The notes below the pieces were generated by a model. The model did not search any database and was not told where the DNA came from. It was given only the letters and a program-made list of their open reading frames with translations. Positions 41,942-49,459 of a stretch of DNA of 64,000 nucleotides are shown here, piece by piece. How positions within the stretch are numbered: position 1 is the first letter of the stretch; each line of letters opens with the position of its first letter. This stretch comes from Candidatus Latescibacterota bacterium. GTDB taxonomy: Bacteria; Latescibacterota; UBA2968; UBA8231. Location: assembly GCA_965243025.1 (NCBI GenBank), contig CBDETY010000003.1:96001-160000 (forward strand), given 5' to 3'. Both the position numbers and the translations under genes were made by a program.

Positions 41942-41957
41942 TGCAAATCAGGGGCCA
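41942..41957 (-). promoter_or_regulatory. sigma54 promoter of the guanidine/urease operon
   Basis: Minus strand TGGCCCCTGATTTGCA (GG-N10-GC). Confidence 0.8.
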
Positions 41958-42091
41958 GACCGTTAGTCCGGTGTTCAGGAAACCGCCCGGCGACTGGCGC
42001 AACTGTTTGTCGGGGAAAGGGTTGTACCCGAGGTGTTTTTTTCGGGGGGTCGCGAAGGCTACCGGGGGAAGAGGCGATTGGCGATGCAGTA

Positions 42092-42135
42092 CGACATTTT
42101 TGTAGCAGGAAATCCTCGTTAAGACACTATTGTCG
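42092..42135. promoter_or_regulatory. Paired ACA-N4-TGT palindromes 30 bp apart; candidate enhancer
   Basis: CGACATTTTTGTAG (42092) and AGACACTATTGTCG (42122). Confidence 0.65.
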
Positions 42136-43023
42136 CACAGGGCCCGGGTGCGGGCCGAGCAGTCTTTCGACCGGGTTGCCTCCGAGCAGGATGCCGGCCG
42201 CATCCCCGAGGAGCCGGCGCAGGGGATCGAGGGATTCGCACCGGTCCGCCAGGGCCCGCAGCACCCAGACCTCCTCCCGCGGCCGGGAGTGGGCGACGAG
42301 AAGGCCGGACTCCCCGGACGCCGCGGGGCCGCCAGCGGCGGCAGGCGGGATGCTCTCTTCCAGCCGCTCTGCAAGGGAGCGGAAACGGCGGCTGTCGGGG
42401 CGGCCGACGGCGCAGGCGTTGAGGAGGGCGGTGCCGCGGCCGAAGGCCCCGGCCGAGTCCGGCGGGGTCTCGTCCGGCCGCGACCGGTAGCGCTCCAGGA
42501 GGACCGTCCTGCCGTCGACGAGGACGTCGATGTCGGAGCGGTACTCGCGGTAGGCGAAGCGCTCGCCGCGCAGGACCCTGCCGGCGGTGTGCCCGTCCGC
42601 GAGCAGGAGCACGGCATCCCCCTCCAGGCTCCAGCGCTGCCGCTGGCGGTAGATGCTGCCGGCGAACGGCACCACCGGGTCCGGCATGACCACCGCGGTC
42701 CCGCCGTCGGCCACGTCGCCGCGCACATCCTGGCGGCAGCCGTCGCCGGCGGGGCACCTGTACACCTTGCCGAGGGCCTGGGTGCCGAGGAAGAGGGCGG
42801 CCCCCGGACCGCAGCGCACCTCGAGGTCGACGGCGTCCCCCTCGACCAGGCCGCCGCCGTAGGAGGAGAGGATCACCGGGCAGTACCCCTCCGCGGCGCG
42901 CGGGTTGAGCAGCTTGAGCGGGGGGACCGAACGGCAGCGGGTCAGTCTCGAGACGCCGCCGCAGCGCTCGACGGCGGCGAGGGAATGCTGCCCCTGCGAC
43001 GGGGTTCCGGATTCGTCGGTCAC
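42127..43023 (-). CDS. ureD: Urease accessory protein D
   Basis: PLKLLNP, SSYGGGLVEGD, GTQALGKVY and PDPVVPFAGSIYRQ motifs. Confidence 0.9.
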   Translation of the reverse strand: MTDESGTPSQGQHSLAAVERCGGVSRLTRCRSVPPLKLLNPRAAEGYCPVILSSYGGGLVEGDAVDLEVRCGPGAALFLGTQALGKVYRCPAGDGCRQDVRGDVADGGTAVVMPDPVVPFAGSIYRQRQRWSLEGDAVLLLADGHTAGRVLRGERFAYREYRSDIDVLVDGRTVLLERYRSRPDETPPDSAGAFGRGTALLNACAVGRPDSRRFRSLAERLEESIPPAAAGGPAASGESGLLVAHSRPREEVWVLRALADRCESLDPLRRLLGDAAGILLGGNPVERLLGPHPGPVRQ

Positions 43024-43046
43024 GCTGGAGGGGCTGCCGGCAGGGC

Positions 43047-43087
43047 AAAAAAGAGGCAGGCCGTCGCCGGGACGGCCTGCCTTCTTT
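43047..43087 (-). terminator. Rho-independent terminator after glnA
   Basis: 12-bp stem AGGCAGGCCGTC/GACGGCCTGCCT followed by CTTTTTT on the minus strand. Confidence 0.8.
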
Positions 43088-43135
43088 CGGATTGGACGGC
43101 GCTCGGCTTCGAACGCCGGCCGGAGTTGCCCAGCC

Positions 43136-47640: not shown

Positions 47641-47712
47641 CTACAGCTTTGGAGGCAGTGGAATCAAGCAACAATCATGTTACAATTGGATTTTTTGGCG
47701 ACAAAAATGTAG
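47641..47712. promoter_or_regulatory. ACA-N4-TGT palindromes; candidate enhancer
   Basis: CAACAATCATGTTA (47669) and CGACAAAAATGTAG (47699), 30 bp apart; a weaker CTACAGCTTTGGAG at 47641. Confidence 0.65.
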
Positions 47713-47780
47713 GAACACGGAGCTGTACTGATTGCGGGGATGGATCGGTGCCGGATGCAAGTATCCCTGCGGCGGGGCAC

Positions 47781-49322
47781 TTAGGACCGGTACTGGGTGT
47801 AGTCCACTTCCAGCTTTTTGCAGCGGTAGGAGAAGATGCGCGACGTGGTGCCGAGCAGCCGCGCCGCCCTGGCCATGTTCCCCCTCGAGTTCTTCATCGC
47901 CTCGACGAGGATCTCGCGCTCGTACGAGCCCATCATCATCTCGAGGGAGCCGGACAGCATGGTGCCCGAGGCGTCGGCGGTCTGCAGGGTGGGGGGCAGG
48001 TGGTGGCCGTGGACGACGCCGTCGAGGCTGAGGATGACGGCGCGCTCGACGCAGTTCTCCAGCTCGCGGACGTTGCCGGGCCAGTGGTAGCTCATCAGCA
48101 TGTCGATGGCCGGGGTCGAGATCCGCTTCATCTCCTTCGAGTGCTTGCGCGCGTACTTCTCGAGGAAGGAGTCGGCGAGCAGGAGGATGTCGGATTTCCG
48201 CTCCCGCAGCGGCGGCACGTAGATCGGGAAGACGTTGAGGCGGTAGAAGAGGTCCTCGCGGAACCGCCCCTGCTTCACGGCGTGCTCGAGGTCGACGTGG
48301 GTCGCCGCGACGACGCGCACGTCGATCTGCTTCGGCTCGCTGCCCCCGAGACGCTCGACCTCGCGCGCCTGCAGCACGCGCAGCAGCTTGACCTGGACCG
48401 CGGCGCTGAGCTCGCCGATCTCGTCGAGGAAGATCGTTCCCCCCTCGGCGCGCTCGAAGCGGCCGGCCCTGGTCCGGGTGGCCCCGGTGAAGGCCCCGCG
48501 CTCGTGGCCGAACAGCTCGCTCTCGACCAGGGACTCCGGAAGGGCGGCGACGTGCACCTTGACGAACGGCTTGCCGGCGCGCAGGCTGGCGTAGTGGACG
48601 GCGTCGGCCACCAGCTCCTTGCCGGTGCCGCTCTCGCCGCGCAGCAGCACGGTGGCGTCGCTGGGAGCGACCTTGCCGATCAGGTCTCCCACCTCCTGCA
48701 TCGGGCGCGAGTTGCCGACGATGTTGGAGGGGTGGAAGCGCTCCTTCAGCTCCCCCTGCAGGCGCAGGTTCTCGTCGAGGAGGCTGGCGCGCTCGCGGCG
48801 GGCGGTCCGCCTCGCGGCCACCGCCTGGGCCACCATCGCCGACACGATCGCCAGCAGTCTGACGTTCTGCTCCAGGCGCGAGTCGTCGATGTAGGGGGTG
48901 TCGACGCTGAGGGTGCCGACGACCTCTCGCTGCAGCAGGATCGGCACGCAGATGAACGAGGTCTGCGACTTCTCGGTATCGGTGCGGGCCCCGGTGCGGT
49001 CGAGGAACAGGGGCTCGCTGCTGATGCGGGGGACGATGACGGCCTTGCCGGACTGCATCACCCGGCCGGTGATCCCCTCTCCCATCTTGTAGCGGCCGCG
49101 CTCGATCTCGGAGGGGGACAGGCCGTAGGCGATGTCGATGCTGGCCTCGCGGTCCCCCTGGGGAAGGGTAAGGGTGCCCAGCCCCATTTGCAGGCGTTCG
49201 CCGAGGAGCTGGAGGATGCGGTGCAGCGAGTCCTCCAGCTCCGAACCGGACCCGAGGACCTCGCCGATCTCGTGCAGGACGTCGATCTGGAGCCGGTCGG
49301 TCAGCGCTGAGGGGGATCGCAT
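47781..49322 (-). CDS. NifA-like GAF-AAA+-HTH sigma54 activator
   Basis: GAF region GEGITGRV..SFICVPI; GESGTGKE, GAFTGA and [10 protein letters not shown] motifs; C-terminal HTH; ATG 49322 after AAGAGGT. Confidence 0.92.
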   Translation of the reverse strand: MRSPSALTDRLQIDVLHEIGEVLGSGSELEDSLHRILQLLGERLQMGLGTLTLPQGDREASIDIAYGLSPSEIERGRYKMGEGITGRVMQSGKAVIVPRISSEPLFLDRTGARTDTEKSQTSFICVPILLQREVVGTLSVDTPYIDDSRLEQNVRLLAIVSAMVAQAVAARRTARRERASLLDENLRLQGELKERFHPSNIVGNSRPMQEVGDLIGKVAPSDATVLLRGESGTGKELVADAVHYASLRAGKPFVKVHVAALPESLVESELFGHERGAFTGATRTRAGRFERAEGGTIFLDEIGELSAAVQVKLLRVLQAREVERLGGSEPKQIDVRVVAATHVDLEHAVKQGRFREDLFYRLNVFPIYVPPLRERKSDILLLADSFLEKYARKHSKEMKRISTPAIDMLMSYHWPGNVRELENCVERAVILSLDGVVHGHHLPPTLQTADASGTMLSGSLEMMMGSYEREILVEAMKNSRGNMARAARLLGTTSRIFSYRCKKLEVDYTQYRS

Positions 49323-49380
49323 GGTCAGAACCTCTTTCAATCAGTAGAGAACCCGATTGTCGAGAACCGGATTCGGCGGA

Positions 49381-49424
49381 CGACAAAATCGTAGATAAAC
49401 GAAAATTTAACTACAAAAGTGTAT
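49381..49424. promoter_or_regulatory. Paired ACA-N4-(T/C)GT sites 30 bp apart; candidate autoregulatory operator
   Basis: CGACAAAATCGTAG (49381) and CTACAAAAGTGTAT (49411). Confidence 0.6.
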
Positions 49425-49430
49425 TATTCC

Positions 49431-49459
49431 AGGATAGGGGCGAAGCCGGAGGAGGTCAA
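49431..49459 (-). promoter_or_regulatory. sigma70-type promoter of the NifA-like gene
   Basis: TTGACC-N17-TATCCT on the minus strand. Confidence 0.55.

Follow-up and report, generated by a model that had tools for sequence, protein, structure and literature searches.

A NifA-related GAF activator and paired palindromic operators predicted to govern nitrogen scavenging in a Latescibacterota bacterium

Introduction

Which protein directs the response to nitrogen limitation in the Latescibacterota, and through which DNA sites, is a question raised by a 64,000-nucleotide stretch of a Candidatus Latescibacterota bacterium (assembly GCA_965243025.1, contig CBDETY010000003.1, positions 96,001 to 160,000 of the forward strand; hereafter the window, numbered from its first letter). 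It encodes a sigma-54-dependent activator with a GAF domain beside genes for ammonium uptake and assimilation and for the apparent use of guanidine and urea, all on the minus strand in the order activator, operator pair and sigma-54 promoter, amtB, glnK, a porin-like gene, glnA, ureD, a further operator pair and sigma-54 promoter, and the guanidine/urease operon. An earlier note, made from the sequence alone, had proposed that this activator is the local nitrogen regulator, acting through an unusual paired palindrome, and that it represses its own gene. On the sequence evidence set out below, we consider it probable that the activator, a member of a clade sister to canonical NifA, binds the paired palindromes, drives nitrogen-scavenging sigma-54 promoters and occupies its own promoter.

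Paired operators and their promoters

The palindrome C(G/T)ACA-N4-TGT(A/C)G occurs in six copies that make up three pairs, each exactly 30 bp apart, and all six lie where the earlier note had placed them. Their scores are from a symmetrised position weight matrix (PWM) built from these six sites, and distances to a promoter are counted from the centre of the site to the -12 (low-coordinate) end of the match.

42092-42105, CGACATTTTTGTAG: proximal upstream activator site of the guanidine/urease operon, 17.5 bits, centre about 157 bp upstream
42122-42135, AGACACTATTGTCG: distal upstream activator site of the guanidine/urease operon, 15.9 bits
47669-47682, CAACAATCATGTTA: proximal upstream activator site of amtB, 11.0 bits, centre about 115 bp upstream
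47699-47712, CGACAAAAATGTAG: distal upstream activator site of amtB, 17.5 bits
49381-49394, CGACAAAATCGTAG: second putative autoregulatory operator, in the 5' leader of the activator gene, 30 bp from the first, 15.7 bits
49411-49424, CTACAAAAGTGTAT: promoter-proximal putative autoregulatory operator of the activator gene, 15.1 bits
47641-47654: weak candidate for a third site, 28 bp closer to the amtB promoter, 6.2 bits
49349-49362: possible weak third site, 32 bp beyond the pair in the activator leader, 5.5 bits, which may be chance

The last two sites are too weak for a three-site array to be claimed. The ACA-N4-TGT core is perfect in five of the six sites and carries one mismatch in that at 49381; the C(G/T)ACA half-site given in the earlier note fits the motif in general but not the weakest site (47669), where the second base is A. 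Scores over the six range from 11.0 to 17.5 bits, and eight other positions in the window reach 8 bits or more (14 with the six sites included), the best of them (12.3 bits) inside glnA. The window, which has a G+C content of 67%, contains 10 exact ACA-N4-TGT cores and 114 with up to one mismatch; at spacings of 15 to 59 bp, more than one pair was found only at 30 bp, and these were exactly the three pairs described. Across 200 shuffles in which composition was kept in local 100-bp blocks, matches of at least 10.5 bits averaged 1.1 against nine observed, and not one shuffle produced any pair at 30 bp against the three observed.

Each pair accompanies a predicted promoter. A search of the window for the sigma-54 pattern TGGC-N7-TTGCW, with up to one mismatch allowed, returned 21 matches, only two of them perfect, and it is these two that lie downstream of the guanidine-operon and amtB pairs, in agreement with the earlier note. 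Both have their operator pair 95-180 bp upstream, or 115-190 bp on the measure used in the list above. The third pair, as had also been claimed, lies just downstream of a sigma-70-like promoter of the activator gene.

41942-41957, minus strand: sigma-54 promoter of the guanidine/urease operon, TGGCCC-N5-TTGCA, 0 mismatches
47560-47575, minus strand: sigma-54 promoter of amtB, TGGCAC-N5-TTGCA, 0 mismatches
49431-49459, minus strand: sigma-70-like promoter of the activator gene, TTGACC-17-TATCCT, a consensus match only

Read along the minus strand, the activator leader consists of the -35 hexamer, 17 bp, the -10 hexamer, 6 nt, the operator at 49424-49411, 16 bp, the operator at 49394-49381, about 58 nt and the ATG. 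The first of these operators should cover the predicted start site, since it begins 6 nt past the -10 hexamer. None of the three regulatory regions contains the canonical NifA upstream activator site, TGT-N10-ACA, which occurs once in the 64 kb; speculatively, a pair can also be viewed through its inner halves, TGT-N20/21-ACA, which correspond to the canonical NifA site lengthened by one helical turn. A search of the leaders against Rfam found no guanidine or glutamine riboswitch and no other RNA family.

The activator and its phylogeny

The earlier description of the protein as a GAF-domain sigma-54 activator is borne out by its domains and motifs.

47781-49322, minus strand: activator gene, 513 amino acids (aa); GAF (residues 28-168), Sigma54_activat (201-367), AAA lid and HTH_8 (468-503)

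Sigma54_activat (PF00158) is matched at 237 bits, and the GAFTGA, Walker A (GESGTGKE) and Walker B (FLDEIGE) motifs are intact. Against the NCBIfam NifA model TIGR01817 the protein scores 514.9 bits, which is below the cutoff of 528.85, and the best-matching stretch comprises residues 18-461 only. Among the protein matches listed, the closest relatives share 70-99% identity with it, many of them 70-84%; the few that carry a name come from Gemmatimonadota and Latescibacterota assemblies and are called "sigma 54-interacting transcriptional regulator" by NCBI and "Nif-specific regulatory protein" by JGI.

A tree was inferred with IQ-TREE from 52 sequences: the window protein, 33 proteins from 80 loci (designated by L numbers; near-full-length matches and three outgroup activators) and 18 proteins hand-picked among 120 listed matches to span the range of identities. 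The window activator falls in a clade of 16 sequences (100/100; ultrafast bootstrap, UFboot/Shimodaira-Hasegawa-like approximate likelihood ratio test, SH-aLRT) that is nested in a clade of 39 (99/93). Left outside the latter is a group of 10 (94/77) that holds the NifL-linked gammaproteobacterial NifA (L024), the alphaproteobacterial L030 and L046, a Hydrogenobaculum protein and Desulfovibrio/Desulfomicrobium/Desulfobulbus-type proteins. The backbone of the 39-sequence clade lacks resolution, and within it members linked to nif genes (L002, L003, L005, L007 and L018) are mixed with members linked to amtB, glnK, glnA, GSIII, GOGAT, glnD or nadE (the window, L001, L010, L011, L013-L016 and L021), at least four changes of label being required. 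A division into two clean clades, one nif-linked and one assimilation-linked, had been hinted at by a quick tree and was abandoned on the basis of this more careful one. Because both kinds of member are mixed, the clade is best described as a sister lineage of canonical NifA that is not cleanly "non-nif".

Two observations from this part of the work stand apart from the argument. The activators of L021, titled a Heliomicrobium metagenome-assembled genome (MAG), and L009, a Blastocatellia MAG, are near-identical tree neighbours (branch lengths about 0.1), and the L021 contig may be mis-binned, since it also carries a DUF481 outer-membrane protein, which would be odd in a Firmicute. The window itself encodes a second sigma-54 activator (24591-27851, plus strand, 1086 aa) with Reg_prop repeats and an AAA+ domain; a one-mismatch sigma-54-like box nearby, CGGCAC-N5-TTGCA (24319-24334, minus strand), points away from it and toward an unannotated 357-aa open reading frame (ORF; 22912-23985).

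Conservation of motif and pairing in related loci

The footprinting that the earlier note had suggested was carried out with the six-site PWM (matches of at least 8.5 bits, pair spacings of 10 to 70 bp) on loci that encode clade members with 46-56% identity to the window activator, no genome match listed being above 56%, and on two comparison sets.

20 loci of the 39-sequence clade, 334 kb: 153 matches; 9 pairs at 30 bp, 6 at 31 bp, 3 at other spacings
10 loci of the other NifA clade, 138 kb: 57 matches; 1 pair at 30 bp, 1 at 31 bp, 7 at other spacings
50 loci of unrelated sigma-54 activators, 745 kb: 167 matches; 0 pairs at 30 bp, 0 at 31 bp, 6 at other spacings

The motif is thus conserved, and with it the pairing: 15 pairs at 30 or 31 bp, spread over 11 of the 20 clade loci, against none in the 50 controls. 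The consensus of 30 related sites, C-(T/G)-A-C-A-(A/T)4-T-G-T-(A/C)-G, is the same as in the window. Genes flanking the related loci were annotated for 117 of 170 script-picked ORFs, short ORFs having been dropped by hand. Pairs lie directly upstream of the activator gene in L004, L008, L009, L014 and L021; immediately past the activator gene and ahead of amtB-glnK in L011 (Verrucomicrobia) and L016 (Treponema); and upstream of amtB-glnA in L013, of glnA in L010 and of GSIII in L015 and L021. Several are followed by a sigma-54-like promoter 100-260 bp downstream, and in L001 unpaired sites precede a sigma-54 promoter and then GSIII-GOGAT. These recurrences at homologous activator genes and at amtB-glnK, glnA and GSIII in other phyla support the proposal of the earlier note that the GAF activator would act as a nitrogen regulator through the paired motif.

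The same loci bear on autoregulation. In L009, L014 and L021, as in the window, the pair falls across a sigma-70-like promoter that serves the activator gene, so that this part of the claimed self-repression holds; repression itself is a matter of interpretation, and control may be positive in some lineages, because the activator gene of L004 and L023 has a sigma-54-like promoter with the pair ahead of it. Autoregulation therefore appears to be conserved, with a sign that may differ between lineages.

Strong single sites were also seen at the starts of nadE genes (glutamine-dependent NAD synthetase) just upstream of the activator, at 8167 in L011 (16.0 bits) and at 8241 in L015 (17.5 bits), making nadE a possible further member of the regulon.

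Comparison with known regulators

Enteric NtrC (NR-I) activates the sigma-54 promoters of amtB-glnK and of scavenging operons from paired sites about three helical turns apart, recognizes the consensus TGCACC-N5-GGTGCA, and represses sigma-70 promoters, such as glnAp1/glnLp, by occupying them. The system proposed for the window resembles it in its paired enhancer sites, in the type of target and in the occupation of its own sigma-70 promoter, but the activator differs from NtrC in having a GAF domain at its N-terminus, no Response_reg match, no adjacent kinase and another operator. With NifA (TIGR01817) it shares the order GAF, AAA+, HTH_8, sigma-54 dependence and a score near the model's cutoff. 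A Cys-rich interdomain motif is a feature of NifA, whereas the window protein has three cysteines only and lacks such a motif; its recognition-helix region reads TTSRIFSYRCKK, compared with MTPRQIGYRIQ in the NifL-linked L024 protein, and it stands outside the clade of nifL-linked and rhizobial NifA (L024, L030 and L046), in the sister clade (99/93). In several NifA proteins the GAF domain is controlled by 2-oxoglutarate or PII. Such control is also the subject of PMC3854208.

The operator is not unprecedented. The earlier note had called it non-canonical for NifA, which agrees with the absence of TGT-N10-ACA at the targets, but in Desulfovibrionales ACA-N4-TGT palindromes had already been predicted as the sites of GAF-type activators that control nitrogen genes (Kazakov et al., 2015, BMC Genomics 16:919; PMC4641369). 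In that work the DVUA0143 regulog comprises 22 predicted sites upstream of nitrogenase operons, e.g. CTACAAAAATGTAG and CGACATTTATGTCG, and includes the identical 14-mer found in the window. DVU1949, likewise a GAF activator, is assigned 16-mers with the ACA-N4-TGT core and, under the label "Nitrogen metabolism and transport", a regulon of nine operons that is predicted to be autoregulated and to include an ammonium transporter, PII and GSIII (PMC4641369). Both proteins are, like the window activator, one-component GAF-type sigma-54 activators, and both motif assignments are comparative inference only (PMC4641369). Neighbouring DVUA0143 sites are 13-23 bp apart over 22 rows, compared with 30 or 31 bp here, and both regulogs are in-silico predictions from another phylum with no guanidine or urease target among the rows compared (PMC4641369). 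The DNA-binding domain of DVUA0143 resembles that of neither of our clades, and, on a comparison of the DNA-binding domains, which differ, orthology of the window activator to DVU1949 or DVUA0143 is not indicated. The DVUA0143-assigned 14-mer also adjoins nif genes in L002 (3295) and L003 (2767), two loci that encode members of the window's clade. We suggest that the assignment of this motif to DVUA0143 in Desulfovibrionales deserves re-examination.

What is new here is the activator clade, the strict pairing at 30/31 bp, the phyla involved and the guanidine/urease target. A full-text literature search for DVU1949 returned PMC4641369 only, and a literature search found no NifA-like regulator of amtB/glnK described for Gemmatimonadota, Acidobacteria or Verrucomicrobia. 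Other papers proved unrelated in the parts considered, namely those on Nitrospira nxr regulators (PMC6606698, PMC7522533) and Clostridiales sigma-54 regulons (PMC6615313) and sigma-54 surveys (PMC3162934, PMC12316311).

Proposed regulation and alternative explanations

We infer the following mode of action. Activator dimers would bind the 14-bp palindrome, and two palindromes 30 bp apart would recruit two dimers, probably on the same face of the helix because 30 bp corresponds to about three helical turns. Upstream of the sigma-54 promoters the dimer pair would nucleate the active oligomer, which would reach the sigma-54 holoenzyme through a DNA loop. When nitrogen is limiting, this oligomer would open the promoter of amtB-glnK, together with the porin-like gene and perhaps glnA by read-through, and that of the operon for guanidine importer, guanidine hydrolase and urease. 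Activator bound at the start site and leader of its own sigma-70-like promoter would limit its own synthesis. By analogy with NifA proteins, the nitrogen signal would most likely enter at the GAF domain as 2-oxoglutarate and/or GlnK; GlnK is the product of a target gene and keeps its T-loop tyrosine.

Several points weigh against this model. The glnA gene has no operator and possesses its own sigma-70-like promoter. No pair at 30/31 bp was found in nine of the 20 clade loci, including the nif-linked L002, L003, L005, L007 and L018, and the pairs of L004 and L023, placed before sigma-54-like promoters, sit uneasily with self-repression. The set of related loci leaves out the promoters of the closest relatives (70-99% identity), and the likeness of the recovered sites is partly circular because the PWM was made from the window's own six sites; pair spacing, pair location and the control loci are independent of it. 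The DNA-binding domain of the DVU1949 type matches L026 and L028, the likely orthologues of DVU1949, which belong to the clade on the canonical-NifA side and not to that of the window. Finally, the assignment of motif to protein in the literature is ambiguous, the identical 14-mer having been given to DVUA0143, whose DNA-binding domain is unlike that of the window activator (PMC4641369).

This last ambiguity also favours a different explanation, in which the pairs are operators of another nitrogen-responsive repressor or co-regulator encoded elsewhere and the NifA-like activator binds otherwise or without a specific site, as do the pairless clade loci and the fact that binding by the activator is argued from sequence. 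However, pairs adjoin the activator gene in the window and in L004, L008, L009, L011, L014, L016 and L021, across at least four phyla, and are missing at 30/31 bp from the 50 loci of other activators. Their place 95-260 bp upstream of sigma-54 promoters fits an enhancer and not a repressor site, and such promoters need an activator, the only adjacent one of GAF type being this protein, with the window's other sigma-54 activator some 20 kb away (24591-27851). We therefore regard a different binder as quite improbable. That the three pairs arose by chance in A+T-rich DNA between genes is hardly credible: the core is short (six fixed bases) and the spacers are A+T-rich in a genome of 67% G+C, but no pair arose in any of the 200 local shuffles that kept composition, and the exact spacing returns in 15 pairs at related loci and in none of the controls.

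The activator might instead be a conventional, nif-specific NifA that chiefly serves nitrogenase genes in other parts of the genome, with amtB and the guanidine/urease operon as side targets and, for example, NtrBC as the real general regulator. Its score on the NifA model is barely under the cutoff, several relatives are named "Nif-specific regulatory protein", nif-linked and assimilation-linked proteins are interspersed in its clade, and the evidence covers the 64 kb window only. Against this, a scan of 54 ORF entries of the window, some of them covered repeatedly, turned up no nif gene, in line with the earlier note; the protein lies outside the canonical NifA clade; TGT-N10-ACA is missing near its targets; and its nearest named relatives are called by NCBI only sigma 54-interacting regulators. 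Moreover, the well-supported subclades closest in context, that of Verrucomicrobia (L011 and L015) and the Acidobacteria-like one (L004, L009, L010, L014 and L021), have no nif genes in the flanks examined. A nif-specific role is accordingly unlikely, and a GAF activator that acts on nitrogen-scavenging promoters through paired palindromes is the explanation we prefer.

Gene content of the regulated region

The genes downstream of the activator are as follows, in the order of transcription.

46076-47482, minus strand: amtB ammonium transporter, TIGR00836, 404 bits against a cutoff of 343
45708-46046, minus strand: glnK/PII, with T-loop Tyr51 present
44855-45556, minus strand: porin-like outer-membrane protein, Gcw_chp/TorF family, possibly co-transcribed
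44735-44708, minus strand: sigma-70-like promoter of glnA
43136-44620, minus strand: glnA, type I glutamine synthetase, without operator
43054-43082, minus strand: terminator-like hairpin behind glnA, with a stem of 12 bp and a T run
42127-43023, minus strand: ureD, a urease accessory gene whose stop codon falls in the spacer of the 42122 operator
40871-41875, minus strand: NitT/TauT-family ABC substrate-binding protein (GimA-like)
39640-40809, minus strand: arginase-family ureohydrolase, a close homologue of the guanidine hydrolase Sll1077/GdmH
37772-39600, minus strand: protein of about 600 aa within the guanidine/urease operon, no Pfam family, G+C at third codon positions about 0.9, start approximate
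36786-38084, minus strand: ORF of the ABC permease, whose real start is probably below 37772
35887 to about 36790, minus strand: ABC ATPase
35114 to about 35880, minus strand: fused ureAB
33385-35097, minus strand: ureC
32621-33385, minus strand: ureF
31785-32744, minus strand: ureG

With its own sigma-70-like promoter and no operator, glnA could come under the activator only by read-through. The ureD gene is set apart from the other urease genes, between the terminator-like hairpin of glnA and the guanidine/urease operator pair. The nitrogen cluster of the window includes a porin-like gene, and an OprD-family porin (5009-6319, plus strand) comes after GSIII in L015, a Verrucomicrobia locus, which suggests nitrogen-regulated outer-membrane channels.

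The label "guanidine operon" used in the earlier note is reasonable because a GdmH homologue, an importer of NitT/TauT type and urease sit together. The arginase-family enzyme matches PDB entries 7esr, 7oi1 and 9fek ("agmatinase 2"), which are Sll1077, at 473 bits. In cyanobacteria sll1077 is gdmH, a Ni-dependent guanidine hydrolase linked to the GimABC guanidine importer, and both are nitrogen-regulated by NtcA (PMC12704784, in the part drawn on here), so that a guanidine operon suits a nitrogen regulon. By the apparent logic of the operon, guanidine would enter through the importer and be split by the hydrolase into urea and ammonium, urease then taking up the urea. The likeness to cyanobacteria lies in a guanidine hydrolase and a NitT/TauT ABC importer under a general nitrogen regulator; NtcA is, however, a CRP-family sigma-70 activator, and cyanobacteria also use the guanidine-I riboswitch (PMC12704784), whereas no such riboswitch was found in the window. 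The window operon differs further in running on into urease genes and in lacking GhaA/GhaB-type maturases. Between the gdmH-like gene and the ABC permease, where cyanobacteria carry the Ni-maturases GhaA/GhaB, lies the ORF of about 600 aa (37772-39600), which may encode an unrecognised maturation or accessory factor.

Two further features were noted. The only Rfam match in the window is 5_ureB_sRNA (34650-34944, plus strand; 42.4 bits, gathering threshold 40), antisense within ureC; it may come only from the conservation of urease coding sequence and need not mark a real antisense RNA. A creatininase-family gene (11698-12651, plus strand), encoding another enzyme of guanidino compounds, lies near an insertion sequence-type integrase (rve) gene (13448-14332, minus strand).

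Implications for nitrogen regulation

The sensing of nitrogen limitation is essentially uncharacterised in Gemmatimonadota, Latescibacterota, Acidobacteriota and Verrucomicrobiota, phyla that are abundant in soils and sediments. The locus described here supplies a candidate regulator, a defined operator (14-bp palindromes paired at 30/31 bp) and targets, on one side the ammonium transporter and PII, on the other the guanidine importer, the guanidine hydrolase and urease; together these make genome-wide prediction of regulons possible. Tentatively, and with somewhat more doubt than confidence, we propose that the NifA-like GAF clade is the master nitrogen regulator in Gemmatimonadota/Latescibacterota-like bacteria, Acidobacteriota, Verrucomicrobiota and some Spirochaetota, filling through its fixed two-palindrome geometry the role that NtrBC has in Proteobacteria. 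Because the tree mixes nif-linked with assimilation-linked members, a general regulator of this kind could have given rise to nif-specific NifA as a specialised branch, and not the other way round. The predicted regulon would also place guanidine scavenging under general nitrogen control outside the cyanobacteria.

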